30,489 nt of DNA from Rectinemataceae bacterium (GTDB lineage: Bacteria > Spirochaetota > Spirochaetia > Treponematales > Rectinemataceae). The notes under the pieces are model-generated. The model searched no databases and was not told where the DNA came from. It saw only the letters and a list, made by a program, of their open reading frames with translations. Made by a program: the position numbers and the translations under genes. Positions 794 to 17,995 of this stretch are shown here, one piece after another (position 1 is the first letter of the stretch; every line of letters begins with the position of its first letter). The stretch spans positions 1-30,489 of the forward strand of contig DATCUA010000306.1 in the NCBI GenBank assembly GCA_036567645.1, in the 5' to 3' direction.

Positions 794-2151
794 AAGACCT
801 GACAACGGGCGACGAAACGAGGGGTTTGATAGGATTCGCCCTGCCCATGCTCTTCGGCAATATTTTCCAGCAGTTCTACAACATGGTGGATTCCTTCGTC
901 GTGGGCAGGTTCGTGGGTACTGAAGCCTTGGCCGCCGTCGGCGTATCCTTTCCCGTGATCTTCCTCATGCTCTCGCTGATCATGGGCATCGCCTTGGGCT
1001 CCACTGTCCTCATCTCCCACAGCTACGGGGCCAAGGATCTGGACTCGCTTCGGAAGGTCATAGACACATCATACATCTTCATATTCGCAGCCGGCTCCCT
1101 GATCTCGATCGTCGGGATCCTGGCCACCGGCCCGATACTCTCTGCTCTCGCCGTGCCTCCGGAAATATCCCCGCAGGCAGGCGCCTACCTGCGGATCATC
1201 TTCTCCGGCATGCTGGCCACGTTCGGATACAACGGTATTTCAGCACTTCTCAGGGGTCTTGGGGATTCCAAGACACCTCTCTACATACTCATCAGCTCGA
1301 CCCTCCTCAATGTCGTCCTCGACCTCCTCTTCGTGGCGGGTTTCGGCTGGGGCGTGGAAGGAGCGGCCTGGGCTACCATTATCGCCCAGGCGATCTCCTT
1401 CGTCGGAGCCATGGTCGTTCTCAACAAGAAGAACCAATATCTCAAGTTCAGCCTGAAAACCCTGCGCTGGGACGCCCATATCTTCTCCCAGATGCTCAAG
1501 ATAGGCCTCCCCTCCGGCATCCAGCAGACCTTTGTATCTCTTGGCATGATGTTGCTCTCCAGGATAGTGAACGGCTACGGTCCAGCTACGATGGCAGCCT
1601 ATACCGCTGCGGGGAGGCTGGATTCCATAGCCTCCATGCCAGCCATGAACCTGAGCCAAGCCGTCACCACCTTCACGGGGCAGAACATGGGTGCCGGCAA
1701 GACCGACAGAGTGAAGCGGGGGCATCTTTCCGCCATCATCCTCAACACCTCCATATCCTTAGCTATAACCCTCGTCGTCCTCCTCTGGGGCGACAAGTTG
1801 ATGAGCATCTTCACCGAAGACGCCGAAGTGGTGCGTATCGGCGACCAATACCTGACCATCGTCGGCATCTTCTACGCCTTCTTCGGCATCATGTTCATCA
1901 ACAACGGGGTCATGCGCGGCGCGGGCGACGTCTTCATCCCCATGATCAATACGCTCCTGGCGCTCTGGGTGGTCAGGCTGCCCTGCGCAGTATTCTTCTC
2001 TAAATACCTGGGCATGGGCACGGCAGGGATATGGTGGTCCATACCCGCCGGCTGGGCGGTGGGGGTAGTGTTCTCCACCTGGTATTACAGAAGCGGGCGG
2101 TGGAAAAACAAGCGTGTTCTCAGACACCCCATCCCCGCGGCGGAAGACTGA
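790..2151 (+). CDS. MATE family efflux transporter
   Basis: 453 aa, about 12 hydrophobic segments; FQQFYNMVDSFVVGRFVG, LRGLGDSKTPL, NVVLDLLFV and G.EGAAWAT MATE motifs; GTG start overlaps the mazG stop (GTGA). Confidence 0.93.
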   Translation: MKDLTTGDETRGLIGFALPMLFGNIFQQFYNMVDSFVVGRFVGTEALAAVGVSFPVIFLMLSLIMGIALGSTVLISHSYGAKDLDSLRKVIDTSYIFIFAAGSLISIVGILATGPILSALAVPPEISPQAGAYLRIIFSGMLATFGYNGISALLRGLGDSKTPLYILISSTLLNVVLDLLFVAGFGWGVEGAAWATIIAQAISFVGAMVVLNKKNQYLKFSLKTLRWDAHIFSQMLKIGLPSGIQQTFVSLGMMLLSRIVNGYGPATMAAYTAAGRLDSIASMPAMNLSQAVTTFTGQNMGAGKTDRVKRGHLSAIILNTSISLAITLVVLLWGDKLMSIFTEDAEVVRIGDQYLTIVGIFYAFFGIMFINNGVMRGAGDVFIPMINTLLALWVVRLPCAVFFSKYLGMGTAGIWWSIPAGWAVGVVFSTWYYRSGRWKNKRVLRHPIPAAED

Positions 2152-2168
2152 AAAAGGCGCTCTCCCGA

Positions 2169-2197
2169 TTCCGCAGGAAGGCGCGCGCGGCTATACT
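2169..2197 (+). promoter_or_regulatory. Putative sigma70 promoter (leaderless layout) of the MFS-HEAT gene
   Basis: TTCCGC (2169-2174), 17-nt spacer, TATACT (2192-2197), 6 nt, then ATG at 2204; no SD. Confidence 0.55.
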
Positions 2198-2203
2198 CAT
2201 GCC

Positions 2204-4468
2204 ATGCCCGCCCCGCTTTCGCCCGCCAAGCTCGCCACGGCGCGCAAGGACTTCTATGTCTTCAACTTCCTCAACTCCTTTTCCTTCATATTCGTCTCGG
2301 GCTCCTTCCTCACCCTCTACGCGTTGAGGCTGGGAGCCTCCAATGCGATCGTGGGCGTCCTCAACGCCATAGCATACGCCAATTTCTTCCTCATGCCCCT
2401 CGGCAAGCACATCGTGCGCTCAAGGCCCATTGTCTGGACCTTCGGCTGGGGCTGGGTGGCGCGCTACGCCGCTCTCGTGCCCAGCATCTTCGCTCCCCTC
2501 TTCGCGTCCAGGGGCCAGACGGGAATCGCCCTCGGCCTCCTCGTGGCCAGCATAGCAGGATTCGCCATATTCAGGGGGCTCGCCCTCATAGGCAACAATC
2601 CCGTCGTCGACTATCTCGCTTCGGGAGGAGGAGACAAACCGAGGTCTGATCGCGGCCAGTTCATGACCAACAATTCCATCATAAATTCCATCGCCGGCAT
2701 GTCGAGCGGCTTTATCCTGGCCTTCTTCTTGGGGGAGAAGGCGACGCCCTGGACCTACGCCATAGGGGTTGGCATAGGCGTTCTCATAGGCTGGGCGGGA
2801 AGCTATTACCTCTTGAGGACGCCCGAACCGGAAGGCTACATGCCCTCGGGCTCCCGATCCCTCGTAGAGATAACGAGAGAAGCCTTGAAAGACCGGCATT
2901 TCAAACGCTTCATCCTCATTTTCATGGCCTTCGCCTTCATATCGGGCATGGGAAGGTCCTTCCTCCCCGTCTACGCCAAGGAAAGCTTTTCGCAGGGAGA
3001 CGACGCCGTCATGGTGTACTCCCTCATCTCAAGCCTGGGCGCCATAGCCATGGGTTTCCTCATGCGCCTGGTTGTGGACAGGCTGGGTTCCAAGCCCCTC
3101 CTCATCATCTTCGGAGGAATAGGGCTCATTGGCTTCTTACCGGTAGCAGTCTTTCCAGGCCCTTCGATTTTCGGTTCGGCTGCCTCGGCAGCCATCTTCT
3201 TGTCGACACTCCATTTCCTCTCGGCTTTCGGCTTTTCAGGGCAGGAGAACGCTTGCCAGACGTACTACTTCACCCTCGTGCCCAAGGAGAAGACCATGGA
3301 TCTCTCTGTGGTCTACTTCATCGCCTATGGTTTCGGAGGAGCCGTGGGCTCGGGCTTCGGAGGCATCCTTCTCGACATCCTCTCCTCGGCCGGCCTCTCT
3401 GTGCAAAGCGCCTACCGGGCGCTCTACGGCGTGCTCTGCGCCCTCGGAGGGATCGCCATCGCTTCCATGCGCAAGCTCAAGCCCCTGGGTTCGGCATCGG
3501 TATCGAGATCCCTCGGCGTCATGCTATCCGTGCGCGATCTGCGCGCCTTCGATCTCCTCACCCGGTTGGATCGGAGCGCTGACGCGAGCCAGGAAGTGAA
3601 GCTCATCCAGGAAATCGGCCGCTCGGCTTCGCCCCTGACCCAAGAAGAGCTCCTCGACTATCTCCGATCTCCGCGCTTCCAGGTGAGGATGGAAGCGCTC
3701 CTCGCCCTAGAGGAGTTGCCGGAACTCTCGCCCAAGGTCCTACGCTATCTCATCAGGGAAACCGAAACCCACACTTTCACAACCTCCTACCTGGCAGCCC
3801 GCATCCTGGGCAAGCACGGGACGAGCGAAGCCATACCTGCGCTGCGAAAGGCTCTGGAGGCCGAGGACTACATGCTCCAAGGAACGGCGGCCATAGCCCT
3901 GGCCAAGCTCGGCGATACCGAATCCCTGCCCCTTCTCGAGTCCATCCTGGTGCGTAGCCCCAACCCGCGCGTGAAAATTTCCATAGCCTACGCCTTGGAG
4001 ACTCTCGGGTCGGTCTCCTCCCTGCCAACCCTCGTAGCCAGCCTCAAGCGATCCGATCCTCCCGCCTTCGTGTCCGACGAGATAGTCCTAGCCATGGCGA
4101 GCATCATGGGAGTTCTGAAAGAGTTCTATCCCCTCTATTCGGCCTTCCTCCAAGACCAGGCCCAGGGATTGGCTCTCCTCTCCGCCTCGGCCCAGGACAT
4201 CATCGCTGATTCGCAGACCTTCCAAGACTGGAAGCAGGCTCTCGAGGCCCTCTTCGCCCATCAGGCAGAGCCGAAGCGAGGTTCGGCCATGGCGGCCTTC
4301 CTCCTCAGGACGGGAAGGAACACGCAGGTAGAGGTCGTATTGAGCGAAGCCCTCATCGATGCGAGCCTCTGCTACAGCGGAGTCGAATTTCTCGCCGCGG
4401 CCTACCCAATCCTGGGAAGGCAGGCTGAAGATACGGGGCCGGGAAGGATATCGGCTCTAGGGAAGTAG
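2204..4468 (+). CDS. MFS-type transporter fused to a C-terminal HEAT/PBS-lyase-like repeat domain
   Basis: N-terminal part has about 12 TM-like segments and an MFS-like loop (VDRLGSKP). The C-terminal part has tandem HEAT-like units (RMEALLALEEL; AARILGKHG..EAIPALRKAL; AAIALAKLGD..SLPLLESIL; IAYALETLG). Start placed at ATG 2204 rather than 2114, whose extension overlaps the MATE gene and the promoter. Confidence 0.8.
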   Translation: MPAPLSPAKLATARKDFYVFNFLNSFSFIFVSGSFLTLYALRLGASNAIVGVLNAIAYANFFLMPLGKHIVRSRPIVWTFGWGWVARYAALVPSIFAPLFASRGQTGIALGLLVASIAGFAIFRGLALIGNNPVVDYLASGGGDKPRSDRGQFMTNNSIINSIAGMSSGFILAFFLGEKATPWTYAIGVGIGVLIGWAGSYYLLRTPEPEGYMPSGSRSLVEITREALKDRHFKRFILIFMAFAFISGMGRSFLPVYAKESFSQGDDAVMVYSLISSLGAIAMGFLMRLVVDRLGSKPLLIIFGGIGLIGFLPVAVFPGPSIFGSAASAAIFLSTLHFLSAFGFSGQENACQTYYFTLVPKEKTMDLSVVYFIAYGFGGAVGSGFGGILLDILSSAGLSVQSAYRALYGVLCALGGIAIASMRKLKPLGSASVSRSLGVMLSVRDLRAFDLLTRLDRSADASQEVKLIQEIGRSASPLTQEELLDYLRSPRFQVRMEALLALEELPELSPKVLRYLIRETETHTFTTSYLAARILGKHGTSEAIPALRKALEAEDYMLQGTAAIALAKLGDTESLPLLESILVRSPNPRVKISIAYALETLGSVSSLPTLVASLKRSDPPAFVSDEIVLAMASIMGVLKEFYPLYSAFLQDQAQGLALLSASAQDIIADSQTFQDWKQALEALFAHQAEPKRGSAMAAFLLRTGRNTQVEVVLSEALIDASLCYSGVEFLAAAYPILGRQAEDTGPGRISALGK

Positions 4469-7488: not shown

Positions 7489-9630
7489 ATGGATAGAAAA
7501 CATGGAGCGATTCTGTTCTTCCTTTTCGCTGTCGTAGCGGGAACAGCCTGGGCAGAGGGATCAGACAGTTCCTTGACCGGGCAAATGACGCTCCTCGTGC
7601 TCCAACTGGCCATAGTCATCTTCATGGTGCGGGCGGGAGGAGCCCTGGCTGGGAAGCTCAAGCTCCCCTCCGTGGTTGGCGAGCTGCTTTCAGGGGTTCT
7701 CATAGGTCCCTACGCCCTCGGCGCGATCCCACTGCCAGGCTTTCCCCAGGGTCTCTTCCCTCTCTCAGAAGGCTTCGCCGTCAGCCCTGTCCTCTATGCG
7801 TTCTCCACCATAGCCTCTATCATCCTCCTTTTTTCTTCCGGCTTGGAAACGGACATAGACATGCTCCTCCACTACTCCGTGGCGGGCGGCGTCGTAGGTC
7901 TGGGAGGCGTGGCCGTCTCGTTCGGCTTCGGCTCCGGACTCGGAGCCCTCCTCACCGGGCAGTCGGTGTTCTCCCCGGCAGCCCTCTTCCTGGGCATCAT
8001 GAGCACTGCGACCTCGGTGGGTATCACTGCACGGATCCTCTCGGACCGGAAAAAGATGGACTCCCCAGAAGGCGTCACGATACTTGCCGCCGCCGTCTTC
8101 GACGACGTCCTCGGAATCGTATGCCTCGCCGTGGTCCTGGGCATCGTAGCCGTCATGACAGGCCAGAGCGCAGGAGGGCTTTCGGCATGGGGAATAGCCG
8201 GCATAGCCATGAAAGCCTTCGGCATCTGGCTAGGATTCACCGCCCTTGGGCTGGTCTTCGGCAAGAGACTCTCTGCCCTCCTCAAGAAACTCGGTGGGGA
8301 AGCATCCTATCCCGTCCTCGCTCTGGGGCTTGCCCTCCTCCTCGCGGGCGTATTCGAACTCCAGGGCTTGGCTATGATAATAGGAGCCTACATCATCGGC
8401 ATGAGCCTCTCGAAGACGGACATAGCCTTCGTCATCCAGGATAAGACCAAGCCTCTCTACGACTTCTTCGTGCCTATATTCTTCGCGGTGATGGGCATGC
8501 TCGTCGACGTCGGCAGGATACTCGAACCTCGAGTCCTCGCTTTCGGTCTCGTCTACACCCTCGGGGCCGTCCTGGCCAAGGCGCTCGGCTGCGGCCTGCC
8601 CTCGCTCTTCCTGGGCTTCAACCTGAGAGGAGCCGCGCGCATCGGCTTAGGCATGGTGCCGCGCGGCGAAGTGGCCCTGATCGTGGCGGGTATAGGGCTA
8701 GCCGGGGGCATTCTCGATCAGGGGGTTTTCGGCGTGGCCATACTTATGATCATGGCGACGAGCATCCTCGCCCCTCCCTTGCTGAACTCGGTTCTGGCAT
8801 CGGGGGGAGAAGGCACCAGGGAACCCGCCAAGGGCTCGCGGACCGAAAGCTTTTCCATCGAGTTCCCCAACCGCGAGATAGCTGACCTTGTCACCAGCAC
8901 CCTCCTGAGGGATCTGGAGAGGGAAGGCTTTTTCGTCCAGCTCATGAGCATTCGGGATTCCATCAGCCACATCCGCAAGGGAGACATTTCCATCTCCCTG
9001 AGCGTAGAGGGCCCGCGGCTCGAGGTAGAGACCGCCCCCGAGGACATACCATTCGCCAAGGCAAGCCTCCATGAGATTCTCGTAAAATTGGACGCGAGCT
9101 TCGACATGCTCAAGGAGCACTATGACGTGGGGGGATTGAGATCGGAAATCCATGCCGATTCCGGCAGGGCGGATGCCACCTACCGCGGACTTCTCGATCC
9201 TGCATGCGTAACCGCTGACCTCTCGGGCGCAACCAAGGAAGAAGTCATCGGCGAACTCGTACGGCTCCTCGTCGCGGCTGGCAAGGTGAAGGACGAAAAG
9301 CTTCTCCTATCCGACCTCCTGGCGCGCGAGGAGCGCATGAGTACGGGCATGGAGCATGGCATAGCCCTTCCGCATGCGCGCACCTATGGCGTGGACAAGC
9401 CGGCCCTCGCCCTGGGCGTGCATAAGGGAGGCCTCGATTTCGGCACGATAGACGGAACTCCGGGGAGGATAATCGCGCTCATAGCGAGCCCAGCCGAGGA
9501 CGAAGCCCCCCATATACAGGTTCTCGCCGGCCTGGGCGCCGTCCTCGGCAACGACGACGTGCGAAGGCGGCTCCTGGATGCGCGCGATTCGAGGGCTGTA
9601 TTCGAAATACTCCAGGGGAAGATAGCCTAG
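7489..9630 (+). CDS. CPA2-family cation:proton antiporter fused to a C-terminal PTS EIIA type-2 (PtsN/fructose-like) domain
   Basis: LPSVVGELLSGVLIGP, ATSVGITARIL, AAVFDDVLG and GMVPRGEVALI are CPA2/NapA-type motifs. C-terminal REERMSTGMEHGIALPHAR carries the EIIA phospho-His (codon 9373-9375). N-terminus looks like a signal peptide (AWA-E). Confidence 0.88.
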   Translation: MDRKHGAILFFLFAVVAGTAWAEGSDSSLTGQMTLLVLQLAIVIFMVRAGGALAGKLKLPSVVGELLSGVLIGPYALGAIPLPGFPQGLFPLSEGFAVSPVLYAFSTIASIILLFSSGLETDIDMLLHYSVAGGVVGLGGVAVSFGFGSGLGALLTGQSVFSPAALFLGIMSTATSVGITARILSDRKKMDSPEGVTILAAAVFDDVLGIVCLAVVLGIVAVMTGQSAGGLSAWGIAGIAMKAFGIWLGFTALGLVFGKRLSALLKKLGGEASYPVLALGLALLLAGVFELQGLAMIIGAYIIGMSLSKTDIAFVIQDKTKPLYDFFVPIFFAVMGMLVDVGRILEPRVLAFGLVYTLGAVLAKALGCGLPSLFLGFNLRGAARIGLGMVPRGEVALIVAGIGLAGGILDQGVFGVAILMIMATSILAPPLLNSVLASGGEGTREPAKGSRTESFSIEFPNREIADLVTSTLLRDLEREGFFVQLMSIRDSISHIRKGDISISLSVEGPRLEVETAPEDIPFAKASLHEILVKLDASFDMLKEHYDVGGLRSEIHADSGRADATYRGLLDPACVTADLSGATKEEVIGELVRLLVAAGKVKDEKLLLSDLLAREERMSTGMEHGIALPHARTYGVDKPALALGVHKGGLDFGTIDGTPGRIIALIASPAEDEAPHIQVLAGLGAVLGNDDVRRRLLDARDSRAVFEILQGKIA

Positions 9631-10490
9631 CCTGAAGTGGCGAGGTAGACTCCCGCGATAGCTACGACCCCTCCTGCCATCTGGAGGAGGCTGAGCCTCT
9701 CGCCGAGGATCAGGAAGGCTCCCACCACCGAGACGACAGGAATGAGGTTGATGAATACCGAGGACCGGCTCGGCCCCAGGCTATCCAGCACGACCACATA
9801 GAACCAGTACCCGAAGGCCGAGGCCAGGACGCCCAAGAAGACTACGTTGAGCCAAGCCTGGAGGCTGATGCCGCTCCATGCCTGGTTTTCGGCCAGGGCG
9901 AAGGGGATGCAGCCGATGGTCCCGAAGAATATCTGCCAGAACGTGACGCAGAGAAGGGAATATTTCCTGCCCAGTGGCTTGGTGAGAAAGGTGTAGACCA
10001 CCCAGGAGAGGGCCGCCCCGCCCATGGCGGCGTAGCCGAGCGCGCTGGATCGGGAGGATTCGGAGCGGATGACTATTCCGGCAACGCCGAGGAAGGAGAG
10101 GATGATTCCCAGCGCCACCTTCCTGCGCGCCCGAATCTTGTAGACCACAAGATCCGTTACAAGGGTGAGCACCGGTATCGTGCCCACGATGATCGAAGAT
10201 TCCGAGGCCGAGAGAAGCTTGATCCCATTGTTCTCGAAGAGGAAGTAGAGACTGATGCCAACGAAGCCGGCTCCGGCCAGCCGGGGCAGGTCCTGGAATT
10301 CCACTCGTATATCCGTCTTCGTGAAGAAGATTATAGGGAGAAGGGTGGCTACGGCTATGACGAACCGGGCCAGGGCCAGACTCATTGGACCCATTTCACC
10401 GACCACCACCTTTGTCGAGATGAACGTGAGCCCCCAGATGAGGGCAACTGCCACCCCGAGAAGAGGCACCGCTTTTTTCCCGCCGCGCAT
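9627..10490 (-). CDS. EamA/DMT family transporter
   Basis: LIWGLTFISTK, ALARFVIA and SSVFINLIPVVSVVGAFLILGE.L; about 10 TM in two repeats. Start at ATG 10490. Confidence 0.9.
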   Translation of the reverse strand: MRGGKKAVPLLGVAVALIWGLTFISTKVVVGEMGPMSLALARFVIAVATLLPIIFFTKTDIRVEFQDLPRLAGAGFVGISLYFLFENNGIKLLSASESSIIVGTIPVLTLVTDLVVYKIRARRKVALGIILSFLGVAGIVIRSESSRSSALGYAAMGGAALSWVVYTFLTKPLGRKYSLLCVTFWQIFFGTIGCIPFALAENQAWSGISLQAWLNVVFLGVLASAFGYWFYVVVLDSLGPSRSSVFINLIPVVSVVGAFLILGERLSLLQMAGGVVAIAGVYLATSG

Positions 10491-10495
10491 GGCCC

Positions 10496-10524
10496 ACTCT
10501 ATCCGGGCCGGACGGCCCTGTCCA
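10496..10524 (-). promoter_or_regulatory. Putative sigma70 promoter (leaderless layout) of the EamA gene
   Basis: Minus strand TGGACA, 17-nt spacer, TAGAGT, 5 nt, then ATG 10490. Confidence 0.6.
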
Positions 10525-10594
10525 GGCGGCAGGCGGCGCGACGGCCGGCCGCAGAGCATCCGCACTCCACAGAGTAGAGCCTGCCAGAGCTCCG

Positions 10595-10603
10595 TGGTAT
10601 ACT
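10595..10603 (+). promoter_or_regulatory. Putative extended -10 promoter (leaderless layout) of hutH
   Basis: TGgTATACT, 6 nt, then ATG 10610; no SD. Confidence 0.6.
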
Positions 10604-10609
10604 CGACTC

Positions 10610-12142
10610 ATGGCTGAAGTCATCCTGGACGGTTGTTCCTGCACCATCGACGATATAGTGGCCATCGCCCGCGACAAGGCCCCAGCCCGCCTGGACGAAG
10701 ACGCGGAAACCCGCATGCTCGACTCCCGCGCCATCGTGGAGCGATGCGTGGAGGAGGGTCTGGTCCGCTACGGGATAACAACGGGCTTCGGCAAGTTTTG
10801 CAATGTTGTCATCTCGGCCCGAGAGAATGCGACCCTCCAGCGCAATCTCGTCATGAGCCACGCCTGCGGTCAAGGGGATCCTTTCCCCGCCGAAGTGGTG
10901 CGGGCCATGATGGCGCTACGGGTCAACGCTCTCGCCGTGGGCAATTCGGGCATACGACCCAAGGCTGCCAGGCTCCTCGTCGACATGCTCAACGCCGACT
11001 GCGTGCCCATTGTGCCGGAAAAAGGCTCACTCGGAGCCTCGGGGGACCTCGCTCCCCTCGCACACATGGCCCTCGTGCTCATAGGCCTGGGAGAAGCCGA
11101 GATCGGTGGGAAGCGGCTTCCCGGGGCCGAAGCCCTAGCTGTGGCAGGCCTGCGGCCCTTGGTTCTCGAGGCGAAGGAGGGCCTGGCCCTCATCAACGGA
11201 ACCCAGGCCATGGCCGCCCTCGGGGCCCTCGCCTCGCGCGACGCGGAAATCCTCTACAAGACCGCCTGCATTGCTTCTGCCTTGAGCATCCAAGCCCTCA
11301 AGGGCATATGGGACGCCTTCGACCCCCGCATACACGAGCTCCGCCGCCAGGTGGGCCAAGTCCGATGCGCAGCCGACATGCGCCGCCTTCTCGAAGGATC
11401 ACGCCTTCTCAGCCGCCAGGGCGAGCTCCGGGTGCAGGACCCGTATGCGCTACGCTGTATACCGCAAGTGCATGGGGCAAGCCTCGACGCCATCGAGTAC
11501 GCCTCCACCATCGTAGGGCGGGAAATCAACGCCGTCACTGACAACCCACTCATCTTCCCCCAGGGAGAAGACATACTCTCGGGAGGCAACTTCCACGGCC
11601 AGCCCATTGCCCTCGCCATGGACTTCCTCGGCATAGCCTGCGCAGAGCTGGCGAACATTTCCGAAAGAAGAATAGAGCGCCTGGTGAACCCCGCACTCTC
11701 CGAGGGTCTGCCCCCCTTCCTCACCCTTTCCGGCGGACTCAACTCGGGTTTCATGATCGTGCAGTACAGCGCCGCTTCCCTCGTCTCCGAGAATAAAGTC
11801 CTCGCCCATCCGGCGAGCGTCGACTCCATACCTTCCAGCGCCAACCAGGAAGACCATGTATCCATGGGGACGACAGCCGCCCGCAAAGCCCGCACTATCC
11901 TGGACAACGCCCTCCGGGTAGTGTCCATGGAACTTGCAGCCGCCTGCCAAGCCCTCGACCTCAGGGCTATCCAGATGGGCCTTCAGGAGGTCGAGAGCCT
12001 CCTCTCGCCCAGGACAGCGGCAGCCTACTCCCTCGTGCGGTCGGCCGTGGATCGTCTGGACGGGGACAGGGTTCTCTACCCCGACCTGGATGCCGTGCAC
12101 CGCCTCGTCGCCCACGGGCTCGTCGCCGACTGCTTCGACTGA
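10610..12142 (+). CDS. hutH: Histidine ammonia-lyase
   Basis: YGITTGFGKF, GSLGASGDLAPLAH (Ala-Ser-Gly MIO triad at 11036-11044), KEGLALINGT, QDPYALRC.PQVHG, SGGNFHGQP, ANQEDHVSMG. Confidence 0.95.
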   Translation: MAEVILDGCSCTIDDIVAIARDKAPARLDEDAETRMLDSRAIVERCVEEGLVRYGITTGFGKFCNVVISARENATLQRNLVMSHACGQGDPFPAEVVRAMMALRVNALAVGNSGIRPKAARLLVDMLNADCVPIVPEKGSLGASGDLAPLAHMALVLIGLGEAEIGGKRLPGAEALAVAGLRPLVLEAKEGLALINGTQAMAALGALASRDAEILYKTACIASALSIQALKGIWDAFDPRIHELRRQVGQVRCAADMRRLLEGSRLLSRQGELRVQDPYALRCIPQVHGASLDAIEYASTIVGREINAVTDNPLIFPQGEDILSGGNFHGQPIALAMDFLGIACAELANISERRIERLVNPALSEGLPPFLTLSGGLNSGFMIVQYSAASLVSENKVLAHPASVDSIPSSANQEDHVSMGTTAARKARTILDNALRVVSMELAAACQALDLRAIQMGLQEVESLLSPRTAAAYSLVRSAVDRLDGDRVLYPDLDAVHRLVAHGLVADCFD

Positions 12143-12242
12143 AAGAAACCCCCGCCACTCCTCCGCCCCAGGCGATGGCCCGCGTCTCGGCCGGCTCCGC
12201 CTGAGGCCCGTGAGGGTGATCGCCCTACCTCGTTCTTCCCCA

Positions 12243-12271
12243 TAGCCATCCCGGGCGAGTTGGGATATTCT
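12243..12271 (+). promoter_or_regulatory. Putative promoter of the PEPCK-hutI unit
   Basis: TAGCCA, 17-nt spacer, TATTCT; SD GGAGG at 12285-12289. Confidence 0.45.
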
Positions 12272-12294
12272 TTTACCCCATCCCGGAGGTACCT

Positions 12295-15200
12295 ATGGCG
12301 GTAAAGCGCGATCTCGGGCTCAAGCTCGACAGACTCTCGCCCAAAGAACGGGCGCGGCTCATAGCCTATATCAATATAAAGCTAGCGAGCATGGGCCTTG
12401 CCGTATACTCCAAAGAAGGAACCGGCTTCGTGGAACTGGCCTCGGACATGCTCGAGAGCTTCAGGCAAAAGGACAAGCTCCTCTCCGGCTACCTTCCGCC
12501 CGCCGACAGGCGCATCCAGGACTTCCTGGACTCCTACCTCGGCGACCTGGGACTCGCCAAGACTCCGAGTCTTCCATCCTCCACCCTGGTGCTCGATCGG
12601 TTCGGGATGGCGCGGGAGATATCTCTTCCGCCCGACGGGCACAAGCATGTCTCGCCCACTCTCTCGTCATATAGGGTTCGCAATGGGGTCCTCCACAACC
12701 CCAGCAACGATAAGCGCACCACGGAAGGGGTATTCCACATAGCCGAAGGCGGCTTGCCCATCCCCCCCGACAAGAAAGCCGTACCCAAGCTCGTTTTCGC
12801 CCGCCTCCTCCAAGCCGCATTCTCGCCCCCTCCCGAAATGCTGGAACTGCCGTTCACGGCCAACGAGTCCCGCAAGGCTCAGGCCATGCTCTCCGCCCTC
12901 CTCCGCCCGGTTGTCAGGCCTGAGGTTCCAGGCTACTGCGACGAGCGATCCATGGAACTGCGCTTCTTCGCCCCAGGCTCGCTCGCCGCGAGCCTCGACT
13001 TCGTCGAGAGCATATTCGGCAATTCTGGCGATCCATTCATCCCCGAAAACGACGCCGGACTCGATCCCCTGCATTGGACGGGCACGACGGGCTGCATTGT
13101 CCTCGCGCCTCACCTGACCGGCATGACCAAGAAAGAGCTCGGCCTTCCCCATTTCGACGAAGCCACGGATCGGCAACGCAGGGACGGGATGTGCTGGAAG
13201 GAGCCCACAGAGAAGTACAACGAGGGAAAGCCCTTCAAGATCTGCGCCCGCGACGAGCGCGGCGTCATGGTCTCCGTCATAGCCGACAACTACTTCGGCT
13301 ATTCCAAGAAGGAGATCAAGGCCCACATCTCCTACTCGGCCAACCTCCTCGGCCTCGCAGAGGAAGAGCATGCTGGGGGGGCCCTCGTCTTCCCATCGTA
13401 CAATCACGGCACCCGCTTCGTTCCCGATACCAACCTGAACTCCAGGGGACACAATATCGAGGAAGTGTTCGAGCTCATGAAGGGGCGCATAGAGATACGA
13501 CCCGAGGGCTACGCGGTCGACCTCACCTATCCATCCATAGTCTACCTGCCGGAGAACGCCGTCATATCCCTCCAGGACCAGACAGCCCAGTGGGTTTGGG
13601 AAGGAAGGGAGCAGAGCCTCAGAATCCTGCCAGGAGAAACGTATGTCCTGCCCACAGGCTACCGCGTCCACATGGAGCGGCACCCCGGATCCGGAGCCTG
13701 GAGGCTCATAGGCACGGCAGCGGACGGCCTTCTGTGCCACAAGCCCTGCACAGTATCGGGAGGGGGAAAATCCGAAATAGCCAAATCCATATCCGACGCT
13801 ATCACCTATTCCCCCATTACCATCGCCGACCTCGCCCAGGATATGGAGGCCGTCCGCTCCATCATAGAAAAGGACTACGGAAGCCGCTTCAAAGATCAGG
13901 ACGAGAACCATGGCAAGGACGCCCGCCCCCTCCTCTCGCCCAAGCGCTCCCTCGGCTCAGTCATCAAGCTCCTATCCCCCTCCCCGCTCTATACGGACGA
14001 GTACAACGCCTGGCTCAAATCCCTGCCCGAGCGCATCAAGAGTCTGGTATTCCTCGTCAAGCGCTTCTACACGGCGTCATGGGGAGACGACTGGGCGAGC
14101 CATTTCTCGGTAGACATAGTCAACGGCACTACCGGCAATATCCTCAAGTTCGAGGACAGGCCCGTCCTGGGCTCGTACCTGCGTGTGGGAAGGGATCCTT
14201 CGGGCCTGCGAAGGACGTTCAAACTCCGCCAGGACTTCATGCCAGCGAGCAAGCTCCAGTGGGAAGACGACATCACAGCCTCCGTCATCGTCCCCGCGAA
14301 AAATCTCAAGAACCTGCCTGACTGGGTCGATCCCGCCACCAGCCTGAAGTTCTGCAAGAACGCGGAAGCCCGCTTCTTCCAGCGACCCGACGACGCCGTG
14401 CAACGCGGCTACGACAAACAGGCCGAAAAGGACCTGTCCAGGCAGGACAACTTCATATCCAACTTCGAGCCTCTTTCCCGGGGCCAGGCATCCAAACTCA
14501 TCGAAAAGACCGTGCAGTTCTCCGAATACACCGAAGCTATGCGATCTTTCATCGAGGCTGCCGAAGCCGACCCCCAGTTCGAGTACTTCGTGGCCTCGGA
14601 CAAGCCGAGGCTCGTTGGTGGAGCTCCGTCCAAGAATCCGCGATACCTCCAGCTCGATCCCAGCTACGCCGATCCCCGGTCGCGCTACCTGGCCGATCTC
14701 GGCCCCCGACTCTTCCGGAGAGTGCGTGCGGATGAGCCTCTCCTCCATCCGGTGGGGGCAGTGCTGCCCGGAAGGCGCAACAACCCCGCCGACCCGAAAG
14801 GTGGGATCAGACCCCTGGCGGTCTACGGCCCCATCCACTTCCAGGATTTGCCCGAGCTCTTCATGGACTTCGTCTGCTCCCTTACGGGAAAGAGCCCGTC
14901 GACTACGGGAGCAGGGAGCGAAGGAGCCCTCACCAAGGGTCCTTTCAACGCCCTCGTGCCCACCACAGACCTCAACAACGCCCTTCTCTCCTTCATTCTC
15001 ACAGGCTATGCGGGATTCACGACCGCAGCCGGCTACATCGGCAGCCGATACAGAGTGGATCACGACATCTCCCTCATGGTACCCGAGCTATGGTCGCGCC
15101 TGTCCCCCGAAGAAAGAGACCCTGAATTCCTCAAGAGCCATGGATACCTGGAGCGAGTGGAGGATTTTACCTACGAAGGTAGGCTCGTACCTGCTTCCCG

Positions 15201-15771
15201 CCTGGGATGGAGGATAACGCCCCTATTCGCCGCCACCTACCTGGGTAGGCTTTTCGACACGCCCTCTTCGGTTTTCCCCGAAGACATGCTCAGGCCCGAA
15301 CTCCAGTCCCTGCCCGAGTATGTGGACGGCATAGAGAATATCGCGGCGGCCATGAAGAAATCTGCGGAAGCCTATTTCGAGGACGGGTCGATAGATGCTG
15401 CCATCCCCCCCCTCAAGGCCATACTTTCGATCATGGCCAAGGGAGACTATGAAGGCAAATCCGTCCACGATCCAGATCTGCGAGCCCTTTTCGACAAGGA
15501 GAAGGTGCTCGCGTCGCCGTGGTACATGGAGAGGCTCGAAGCCTATCGAGGCAGGGAAATAGCCTACATGGACGCCTCGGTATCCTACCTGCGCCGCTTC
15601 CTCGCCCAGAGATCGGACCCGGACAGCCTTCAGGCCCGCAAGGCACAGGCCGAGCTTTCCAAGGTCAGGGACAGGCTCGCCGCACTCGCCGAGCCGGAGT
15701 ACAGGGACATGGTGATGGGCTCGATCGGCAAGGACATGCTCTTCCGAAAACCCCAGGTGCGCGGGGCATGA
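12295..15771 (+). CDS. Pyrophosphate-dependent phosphoenolpyruvate carboxykinase (PPi-PEPCK type)
   Basis: 1158 aa; HNPSNDKRTTEGVFHIAEGGLP, ADNYFGYSKKE, AEEEHAGGA, CHKPCTVSGGGKSE and GKSPSTTGAGSEGALTKGPFN. Size and motifs match the roughly 1150-aa PPi-PEPCK family known from Entamoeba and Propionibacterium. Recognised from memory, not by search. Confidence 0.85.
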   Translation: MAVKRDLGLKLDRLSPKERARLIAYINIKLASMGLAVYSKEGTGFVELASDMLESFRQKDKLLSGYLPPADRRIQDFLDSYLGDLGLAKTPSLPSSTLVLDRFGMAREISLPPDGHKHVSPTLSSYRVRNGVLHNPSNDKRTTEGVFHIAEGGLPIPPDKKAVPKLVFARLLQAAFSPPPEMLELPFTANESRKAQAMLSALLRPVVRPEVPGYCDERSMELRFFAPGSLAASLDFVESIFGNSGDPFIPENDAGLDPLHWTGTTGCIVLAPHLTGMTKKELGLPHFDEATDRQRRDGMCWKEPTEKYNEGKPFKICARDERGVMVSVIADNYFGYSKKEIKAHISYSANLLGLAEEEHAGGALVFPSYNHGTRFVPDTNLNSRGHNIEEVFELMKGRIEIRPEGYAVDLTYPSIVYLPENAVISLQDQTAQWVWEGREQSLRILPGETYVLPTGYRVHMERHPGSGAWRLIGTAADGLLCHKPCTVSGGGKSEIAKSISDAITYSPITIADLAQDMEAVRSIIEKDYGSRFKDQDENHGKDARPLLSPKRSLGSVIKLLSPSPLYTDEYNAWLKSLPERIKSLVFLVKRFYTASWGDDWASHFSVDIVNGTTGNILKFEDRPVLGSYLRVGRDPSGLRRTFKLRQDFMPASKLQWEDDITASVIVPAKNLKNLPDWVDPATSLKFCKNAEARFFQRPDDAVQRGYDKQAEKDLSRQDNFISNFEPLSRGQASKLIEKTVQFSEYTEAMRSFIEAAEADPQFEYFVASDKPRLVGGAPSKNPRYLQLDPSYADPRSRYLADLGPRLFRRVRADEPLLHPVGAVLPGRRNNPADPKGGIRPLAVYGPIHFQDLPELFMDFVCSLTGKSPSTTGAGSEGALTKGPFNALVPTTDLNNALLSFILTGYAGFTTAAGYIGSRYRVDHDISLMVPELWSRLSPEERDPEFLKSHGYLERVEDFTYEGRLVPASRLGWRITPLFAATYLGRLFDTPSSVFPEDMLRPELQSLPEYVDGIENIAAAMKKSAEAYFEDGSIDAAIPPLKAILSIMAKGDYEGKSVHDPDLRALFDKEKVLASPWYMERLEAYRGREIAYMDASVSYLRRFLAQRSDPDSLQARKAQAELSKVRDRLAALAEPEYRDMVMGSIGKDMLFRKPQVRGA

Positions 15772-17078
15772 GGCCGACAAGACAGCGGTCGGATCCCACG
15801 GAAACGGCGGCAGGCTCGATAGCCATCGTCGATATTGGCGAACTCGCGACCCCGATAGGGAAAGGGGCGCTCCGGGGAGCCGAGATGGGCAGGCTCAGGC
15901 GGGTCCGCGGCGCCGCCCTCGTCGCGCAGGCCGGCAGGATAATCTACGCCGGCCCTCAAGACACAGCAGAATGCAAGGCCGCCCTCGATGCAGCAAAAGC
16001 CCTGGGAGCCCCCATCCTCGACGCGGACGGCGCCGCCTGCGTCCCTGGATTCGTCGATTCCCACACCCATTTCCTCTTCGCCGGCTATCGCGCCGACGAG
16101 TTCTTCTGGCGGGCGAAAGGCCTTTCCTACATGGAAATCCACCACCGGGGCGGGGGCATTCGCCGCACCATGGAAGCCACGCGCTTAGCCAGCGCATCGG
16201 AATTGCTCGCCCTGGGACGCGCGAGGCTCGATTCCATGCTCGCCATGGGCGTCACGACCGTCGAGGGCAAATCTGGCTATGGCCTGAACAGGGATACTGA
16301 GATCCGGCAGCTCGAAGTGATGAGGGAGCTGGATTCCCTCTCGCCTGTCGACATCGTGTCCACCTTCATGGGGCCCCACTCCACCCCGCCCGAGTTCGAG
16401 GGAAGACCTTCCGCCTACATCGACTACCTCATCGGCGAGGTATTGCCGGAGGTGGCGAGGCTCAGGCTCGCGCGCTACGCCGACATATTCTGCGAAAAGG
16501 GCGTCTTCGGCATAGATGACTCGCGGCGCTACCTCGAAGCCGCCCGGAGCCTGGGCTTCGGCCTCAAGATCCACGCTGACGAGATTGAGCCCCTTGGAGG
16601 GGCAGGACTTGCCGCTGAGTTTGGAGCGGCTAGTGCGGAGCACCTTCTCAAGGCATCGAAAGCCGATCTGGCGGCCATGGCAGAGGCGGGAGTGCTGGCT
16701 GTCTGCCTTCCTCTCACGGCCTTCAACCTCAGGGAGCCCTATGCCGACGCCCGGTCTATGATCGATCTCGGGCTCGCGGTGGCCCTCGCCTCCGATCTCA
16801 ACCCGGGTTCCTGCCCCAGCCAGTCCATCCCCCTCATTTTCGCGCTGGGCGTCCTCTATATGGGCCTTAGTTTCGACGAATGCCTCTCCGCCCTCACCCT
16901 CAACGGGGCGGCGGCCCTCGGGCTCGCCGGCGACCGGGGCTCCCTGGAGTCAGGAAAACGCGCCGACCTGATCATACTGGACGCGCCCGAAGCCTCGCAC
17001 CTGGCCTATCGCTCGGGTATGGATCTCGTGCGAACCGTCGTCAAGGACGGAATCGTCGCTTTTAGTTCAGCCTCTTAA
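15768..17078 (+). CDS. hutI: Imidazolonepropionase
   Basis: PGFVDSHTH, GVTTVEGKSGYGL, DIFCEKGVF, KIHADEI, SAEHLL, ASDLNPGSCP and GKRADL. ATG 15768 overlaps the PEPCK stop (ATGA); the ORF-track extension from 15519 lies inside PEPCK. Confidence 0.93.
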   Translation: MRPTRQRSDPTETAAGSIAIVDIGELATPIGKGALRGAEMGRLRRVRGAALVAQAGRIIYAGPQDTAECKAALDAAKALGAPILDADGAACVPGFVDSHTHFLFAGYRADEFFWRAKGLSYMEIHHRGGGIRRTMEATRLASASELLALGRARLDSMLAMGVTTVEGKSGYGLNRDTEIRQLEVMRELDSLSPVDIVSTFMGPHSTPPEFEGRPSAYIDYLIGEVLPEVARLRLARYADIFCEKGVFGIDDSRRYLEAARSLGFGLKIHADEIEPLGGAGLAAEFGAASAEHLLKASKADLAAMAEAGVLAVCLPLTAFNLREPYADARSMIDLGLAVALASDLNPGSCPSQSIPLIFALGVLYMGLSFDECLSALTLNGAAALGLAGDRGSLESGKRADLIILDAPEASHLAYRSGMDLVRTVVKDGIVAFSSAS

Positions 17079-17995
17079 ACGCCGGCTTTCGGGCGCCCCG
17101 GCCCTTTCTCCGGTAGATTCCGCGTGGAAACGTAGATGACGACGGCGCCCAGGACTCCCGCGAAGGCGACGAGGAGGGCCGCAGTCGGCCTTTCTCCGAA
17201 GACCGCCATGCCCAGGATCAGCTGGCCCGTCGGGGAAACGTACTGGATGAATCCCATCTTCTGGAGGCTAATGGTGTTGGCCGCCGCCGCGAAGAGGATG
17301 AGGGGAATGGCCGTCACGGCACCGGAAAGCACGAGCAGCGCGGTTTGGGCAGGGCTTCCACGCAAGAAGGCTCCCGCCCCTGCGGCATGTCGGATAAAAA
17401 GGAAGGCCAAGGCCAGGGGAGCAGAAACCAGGGTTTCCACGGACAGGCCCAGGAGGGGCTCCACGGCCAGCCGCTTTTTAACAGCCCCGTACGCGGCGAA
17501 GGTGATGGCCAGAAGGAGGCTGATCCAGGGTACAGATCCATAGAACGCCGCGGCTCCCAGGATTCCCGCCGCCGCGAGGGCAACGGCCGCCCTGGTCCAC
17601 GCGTCCACTCTTTCTCGGAAGAAGACAGCACCAAAGGCTACGGAGAGCAAGGGGTTGATATAATACCCCAGGGCGGATTCCATCACCCTTCCAGAATTGA
17701 CTGCCCAGATGTAGAGACCCCAGTTCGAGGTGGCCAGGAGCGAAGCGAAGACGACCCAACCGATTTTCTTCGCGTTCCTGAAGAGGGCCCAGGCTTCACC
17801 GAGCCTGCGCGAAAGGGTCATGAGGATGAAACAGAACGCCGCCGCCCAGACTATCCGGTGGCTCAAGACCTGGAGGGATTCCACTGTCTTGAGCTGTTTC
17901 CAGTAGAGGGGGAATACTCCCCACATCGCGTACGCCCCGAAAGCGGCGGCGGTTCCCCATCCCCCGTTCTTTCGTCTCATGCCATCTAGCCACAT
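17075..17995 (-). CDS. rarD: RarD-type EamA family transporter
   Basis: AYAMWGVFPLYWKQL, NWGLYIWAVN, ALGYYINPL and GFIQYVSPTGQ are RarD motifs. Start could be 17995 or 17980. Confidence 0.92.
   Translation of the reverse strand: MWLDGMRRKNGGWGTAAAFGAYAMWGVFPLYWKQLKTVESLQVLSHRIVWAAAFCFILMTLSRRLGEAWALFRNAKKIGWVVFASLLATSNWGLYIWAVNSGRVMESALGYYINPLLSVAFGAVFFRERVDAWTRAAVALAAAGILGAAAFYGSVPWISLLLAITFAAYGAVKKRLAVEPLLGLSVETLVSAPLALAFLFIRHAAGAGAFLRGSPAQTALLVLSGAVTAIPLILFAAAANTISLQKMGFIQYVSPTGQLILGMAVFGERPTAALLVAFAGVLGAVVIYVSTRNLPEKGPGRPKAGV

Follow-up and report, generated by a model that had tools for sequence, protein, structure and literature searches.

Formiminotransferase-type histidine utilization (hut) clusters, comprising hutH, hutU, hutI, and ftcd, occur in Fusobacterium and other anaerobes. 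The pyrophosphate (PPi)-dependent phosphoenolpyruvate (PEP) carboxykinases (PEPCKs), among them the enzymes of Actinomyces israelii (PDB 6K31) and Propionibacterium freudenreichii (PDB 8E1U), co-occur with a nucleotide-dependent PEPCK in most carriers (PMC8100219) and are reported to prefer carboxylation, the nucleotide PEPCKs preferring decarboxylation (PMC12547629). In the DNA analyzed here, a stretch of 30,489 nucleotides (nt) from a Rectinemataceae bacterium (contig DATCUA010000306.1; hereafter the window), a gene of the PPi-PEPCK family (pepck) sits between hutH and hutI. We consider it probable that a single insertion brought hutI under the control of the pepck promoter and that the PEPCK itself acts outside histidine breakdown. 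The enzymes are known ones in a conserved arrangement, of which our literature searches, with most subscription journals lying outside them, found no description, in agreement with an earlier sequence-only reading of the window that knew of no hut–PPi-PEPCK operon; a functional coupling of the genes is at most possible.

Identity of the gene between hutH and hutI

The three genes lie on the forward strand in the order given by the sequence-only reading, and both the coordinates and the profile scores bear it out: hutH (10610..12142; histidine ammonia-lyase, 510 amino acids (aa)), a 152-nt spacer (12143-12294), pepck (12295..15771; 1158 aa), and hutI (15768..17078; imidazolonepropionase, 436 aa). 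HutH scored 673 bits against TIGR01225 (cut-off 539), with the GASGDL motif that carries the ASG of the 4-methylideneimidazole-5-one (MIO) group readable in its translation, and HutI scored 424 bits against TIGR01224 (cut-off 298). The hutI ATG (15768-15770) overlaps the PEPCK stop codon TGA (15769-15771) as ATGA and is the sole in-frame start between that stop and the conserved HutI core; a Shine–Dalgarno-like AGGTG (15755-15759) lies 8 nt upstream, so that the whole junction spans 15755..15771 (+). The closest homologues come from Rectinemataceae or related Treponematales.

The middle open reading frame has no match in Pfam or NCBIfam, neither of which holds a model for it. Using phmmer, we found that it aligns with 6K31 over residues 52-1146 and with 8E1U over residues 16-1148 (both E=0; ~1170 and ~1147 bits, respectively), a full-length match to a family whose characterized members measure ~1130-1150 aa. 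The P-loop TVSGGGKSEI and the NPRYLQ, GRRNNP, and GKSPSTTGAGSEGALTK segments are identical to those of 6K31, and 322 of the 340 columns conserved in homologues without hut neighbors are retained. The AlphaFold model (predicted local distance difference test score, pLDDT, 81.6) superposes on 6K31 and 8E1U with template modeling (TM) scores of 0.89-0.92 at 47-49% identity in Foldseek, whereas ATP-PEPCKs give only remote matches (TM 0.14-0.15), and neither PF01293 nor PF00821 matches the sequence. The protein is thus, by sequence and fold, a member of the PPi-PEPCK family (PEP carboxytransphosphorylase, EC 4.1.1.38), as the sequence-only reading had proposed; non-homology is ruled out, and the catalytic activity is predicted. 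We also considered a changed specificity. It found no support, as the hut-linked clade is set apart by only three fixed changes, A365V, Y972W, and V1017A.

The same order, hutH, a large protein, and hutI, is found in the cultured relative Rectinema cohabitans (SPBIB_v1_310090-310092; PMC6052044 supplements). There, the middle gene bears the annotation 'conserved protein of unknown function' and does not figure in the reconstructed pathways (PMC6052044), and the C-terminal sequence of SPBIB_v1_310091 in the supplement of that paper matches the PEPCK described here. The proteome of R. cohabitans growing on glucose plus yeast extract contained all three proteins, SPBIB_v1_310091 with 64 peptides and 301 tandem mass spectrometry (MS/MS) counts; the counts were 16 for HutI, 58 for HutH, 54 for HutU, 91 for formiminotransferase-cyclodeaminase (FTCD), 120 for GTP-PEPCK, and 557 for PPDK (PMC6052044 Table S2). 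Per 100 residues, with the lengths approximated, this corresponds to ~26 counts for PEPCK versus ~4 for HutI, a ~7-fold difference.

Conservation and history of the pepck–hutI pair

To the sequence-only reading, the pairing could have been peculiar to this genome. It is not. We compiled 51 clade loci, one per species, 47 of which had enough downstream DNA, and pepck was followed by hutI in 45 of these 47, across two families, with direct adjacency in 39. Relatives mostly show a gap of -11 to +40 nt between the two genes, but insertions of 1-4 kb separate them in some lineages. The ATGA overlap is confined to a subset of relatives; therefore, although the overlap and the AGGTG are real features of the window, the translational coupling that had been read from them is at most suggested.

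The surroundings of the pair are also well kept. As a control for background synteny we used rarD, an EamA-family gene convergent with hutI (17075..17995, reverse strand; TIGR00688, 206 bits, cut-off 130). Among 35 clade loci, hutI was retained in 33, rarD in 24, and rpoA or livK in 22, indicating that background synteny is high and that the pair exceeds it. A second EamA-family transporter gene, divergent from hutH (9627..10565, reverse strand; PF00892), is a syntenic neighbor with no shown link to the three genes; it is present in 20 of 32 clade loci, including some that have no hut genes.

Outside the clade, no hut gene neighbored pepck within the fetched flanks of 83 loci (29 from genomes and 54 from metagenomes), and hutI was encoded elsewhere in 7 of the 29 genomes. 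In the phylum sample, genomes with both PPi-PEPCK and hutI were confined to this family and the sister family. A search for independent hut–pepck clusters found none among the matches examined, which were the 80 top-scoring of 465 and the 80 top-scoring of 564.

In FastTree phylogenies with midpoint rooting, the hut-linked PEPCKs form one clade, as do the linked HutIs (support 100 in both cases). The nearest outgroup HutIs, from spirochaete family f17, are encoded immediately downstream of hutU in 6 of 7 loci; no PPi-PEPCK was found in the 9 genomes of that family searched. The order hutH-hutU-pepck-hutI occurs in two of the three family subclades, sometimes with an extra gene, and the order without hutU, seen in the window and in Rectinema, belongs to a nested clade of 23 rows (support 99). 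It is therefore likely that pepck entered once, between hutU and hutI, giving an ancestral order hutH-hutU-pepck-hutI from which hutU later moved; this direction is inferred as the simplest reading of the gene orders. The sequence-only reading had offered, as one of two possibilities, an insertion that placed hutI under a central-metabolism promoter. This is the better supported of the two, with the amendment that the interrupted pair was likely hutU-hutI. An ancestral hutH-hutI pair is unsupported, because the hutU-hutI adjacency in family f17 and the nested position of the hutU-less clade argue for hutH-hutU-hutI.

In five loci of one subclade (L052, L054/G029, L211, L225, and L246), the hut genes are gone, and PEPCK, its promoter-like site, and the EamA gene beside it remain. 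Loci with hut genes are interspersed among these five, so that up to four losses are needed to account for them. No hutI was found in the L052 and L054 genomes; the other three are metagenome contigs, for which the statement covers the locus only. Several lineages (L053:548-1177, L062, L071, L073-L075, L052, L211, L225, and L246), some of them hut-less, encode a conserved protein of ~190-210 aa with no Pfam match, either close to hutH or immediately upstream of pepck.

Predicted transcription units, metabolic context, and alternative explanations

In 28 of 34 family loci, we observed a -10-like hexamer whose end lies 18-40 nt, mostly 28-32 nt, upstream of the pepck start, compared with a mean of 8.7 and a maximum of 15 in shuffled controls and 0-3 of 34 in windows further upstream; the intergenic sequences around it are otherwise divergent. 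In the window, it forms part of a predicted internal promoter (12243..12271, +) of TAGCCA, a 17-nt spacer, and TATTCT, followed by the Shine–Dalgarno sequence GGAGG (12285..12289, +), with GGAG(G) at the same place clade-wide. An extended -10 element, TG-G-TATACT (10595..10603, +), 6 nt upstream of the hutH ATG, would act as a leaderless promoter for hutH, a layout present in ~22 of 33 relatives as counted by eye. Upstream of hutI, such a hexamer was found in only 4 of 31 relatives, and no promoter-like site was found for hutI here. Since pepck and hutH each have a promoter-like site of their own and hutI has none, pepck and hutI probably form one transcript and hutH another, with read-through from hutH possible. 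A terminator-like hairpin at 12248-12266 was set aside: such hairpins are no more frequent than chance predicts (6 found, 6.0 expected), and the predicted -10 box accounts for its T-rich tail.

Inverted repeats overlie the predicted pepck promoter in parts of the clade. An operator-like TGACA-N13-TGTCA covers the predicted -10 box ~45 nt before the start in L052, L054, L057, and L246, with variants in L055, L081, L211, and L225; each 10-15 kb locus has a single copy, which is retained where the hut genes are missing, and none precedes hutH or hutU. In other subclades, ATATGCTA-N7-TAGCATAT and its variants start at the predicted -10 box, ~38 nt before pepck in L053, L175, L049, and L025 and ~76 nt before it in L065, L068, and L070.

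The rest of the pathway lies outside the window, as the sequence-only reading had implied from the absence of hutU and hutG/ftcd. We located hutU on contig C358 and, on contig C301, the C-terminal cyclodeaminase part of FTCD, which begins at base 2. The transferase domain was not found in this 92%-complete genome; because the cyclodeaminase half lies at a contig start and a fused FTCD of ~550 aa is present in 35 of 36 family genomes, the missing domain probably fell into a gap of the assembly. Across the family, the hut pathway is complete or nearly so. This genome yielded no arginase-type HutG, no formylglutamate amidohydrolase, and no HutC above the cut-off (best TIGR02018 score 103 versus 220), and HutP (PF09021) was found in 0 of 41 genomes. 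With its genes scattered over contigs and neither regulator detected, the locus is not a canonical regulated hut operon, and the promoter predictions point to two units rather than one histidine-inducible transcript.

Several further features of these hut genes were recorded. The relocated hutU (L161:3462-7284, on C358; also L159) is divergent from a gene annotated as 'malate dehydrogenase' in R. cohabitans, and serC- and serA-like genes adjoin it. The family FTCD is fused like the animal enzyme (the start of C301, L112, and L113-L122), and in Treponema-like genomes the halves are separate genes. In genome G014, a second, divergent hut cluster (contig C188:30244-35693), with hutH, hutI, a short hutU of 33% identity, and a separate ftcd, coexists with the PEPCK-linked set and was possibly acquired by transfer.

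Taken together, the gene orders and predicted promoters make the following scenario the probable one; the gene identities, orders, and content and the monophyly of the linked genes are observed, and the promoters, the co-transcription, and the directions of the history and of the flux are inferred. The common ancestor of Rectinemataceae and the sister family would have acquired, in a single event, an ordinary PPi-PEPCK gene that carried its own promoter and came to lie between hutU and hutI. The insertion would have severed hutI from the upstream hut promoter and made it the second gene of a pepck-hutI transcript, and the resulting dependence would keep the pair together; hutH would have kept its own promoter, and hutU would have moved later in the lineage of the window. 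PEPCK would serve central metabolism, most likely in the direction PEP + CO2 + inorganic phosphate (Pi) to oxaloacetate + PPi, alongside PPDK and a membrane pyrophosphatase. Separately, HutH, HutU, HutI, and the fused FTCD would degrade histidine to glutamate and a tetrahydrofolate-bound one-carbon unit. PPDK and the membrane pyrophosphatase (H+-PPase), both encoded in this genome, fit a PPi-based central metabolism of this kind. The genome also encodes fumarase and yielded no ATP-PEPCK; it is one of 34 among 36 family genomes that carry a GTP-PEPCK.

Several points weigh against this scenario. The promoters are predicted, and because the loci share ancestry the counts overstate their independence; the deep branching of the trees is poorly supported; and the proteome represents one condition in another species, with a yeast extract that contains histidine. 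Furthermore, hutH stays near pepck in 27 of 32 loci despite its own promoter-like site, the pair survives divergence down to 62% PEPCK identity and is better kept than rarD, and genus g7 is without PEPCK, hutH, hutU, and hutI together. Such long survival, beyond that of the neighbors, would be compatible with selection for shared expression.

Could the link then have been selected for its function? PEPCK, carboxylating and co-regulated with the hut genes, could supply oxaloacetate as an amino acceptor or aspartate precursor for the glutamate formed from histidine (glutamate + oxaloacetate to 2-oxoglutarate + aspartate), or all of the genes could belong to one peptide-fermentation regulon. The conserved pair with its nearby hutH and the joint absence from g7 would suit this explanation, as would the reported preference of PPi-PEPCK for carboxylation (PMC12547629) and the lifestyle of the relatives, which ferment protein and necromass and in which glutamate dehydrogenase, malic enzyme, and fumarase are expressed (PMC6052044). 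We nevertheless think it unlikely. The arrangement has a single origin and no parallel among the outside loci examined, PEPCK is retained after hut loss, no common upstream motif was seen and neither HutC above the cut-off nor HutP was found, and just the three fixed residue changes mark the linked clade.

It is a rather poor prospect that the order persists merely by slow rearrangement near the ribosomal protein/rpoA operon, with no meaningful co-transcription. The retention of rarD and of rpoA or livK, the tolerated 1-4 kb insertions, and the ~7-fold difference between PEPCK and HutI protein levels could all be understood in this way, but the gaps are mostly below 40 nt, hutI lacks a promoter-like site, and the neighbors are retained less often than the pair. 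Finally, the co-regulated histidine/glutamate-to-PEP module offered as the other possibility in the sequence-only reading, in which histidine carbon would reach oxaloacetate by way of glutamate and the citric acid cycle and PPi-PEPCK would form PEP for gluconeogenesis, is very improbable: the complete or nearly complete hut pathway of the family and fumarase would suit it, but the oxidative route appears broken, as this 92%-complete genome yielded neither an SdhA/FrdA domain nor a succinyl-CoA synthetase and 19 of 22 family genomes likewise gave no SdhA/FrdA domain, the decarboxylation-preferring GTP-PEPCK is already present, the PPi enzyme is reported to prefer carboxylation (PMC12547629) and is abundant on glucose in R. 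cohabitans, the promoter-like sites are separate, and PEPCK persists with its promoter and the operator-like repeat where the hut genes are gone.

Neighboring genes and comparison with known systems

Elsewhere in the window, a CPA2 cation:proton antiporter with a fused C-terminal phosphotransferase system (PTS) EIIA domain (7489-9630, +) is 70-76% conserved in close relatives, and HEAT repeats are fused to a membrane domain resembling the major facilitator superfamily (2114-4468, +). An Rfam search of the window gave no match.

The locus shows no new pathway. Its value lies in naming an abundant 'unknown' protein of a cultured bacterium, R. cohabitans, as a PPi-PEPCK, an assignment that alters the metabolic picture of necromass-fermenting spirochaetes, and in providing a well-sampled case of operon rewiring in which gain, relocation, and loss are all visible. 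We know of no settled explanation for why bacteria keep both a PPi-PEPCK and a nucleotide PEPCK, and R. cohabitans offers a culturable system for this question. Were pepck and the hut genes an adaptive unit, regulated together and serving amino acid fermentation, in which oxaloacetate from PPi-PEPCK accepts the nitrogen of histidine-derived glutamate while the citric acid cycle is broken, PPi-PEPCK would have a physiological role not described before; we give this only a small chance.

Compared with the formiminotransferase-type hut clusters, including those of family f17, the locus shares the same enzymes, the long HutU (~680 aa), and the glutamate formiminotransferase route. Unlike them, it is split, holds a central-metabolism gene inside, and has hutU and ftcd elsewhere; the fused FTCD and the lack of HutP and of a HutC above the cut-off further set it apart. 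With most PPi-PEPCKs it has in common that a nucleotide PEPCK is encoded alongside (PMC8100219). Unlike the genes for 6K31 and 8E1U, the PPi-PEPCK gene of this spirochaete clade, whose activity and PPi specificity are predicted from sequence and fold, sits within a hut cluster.

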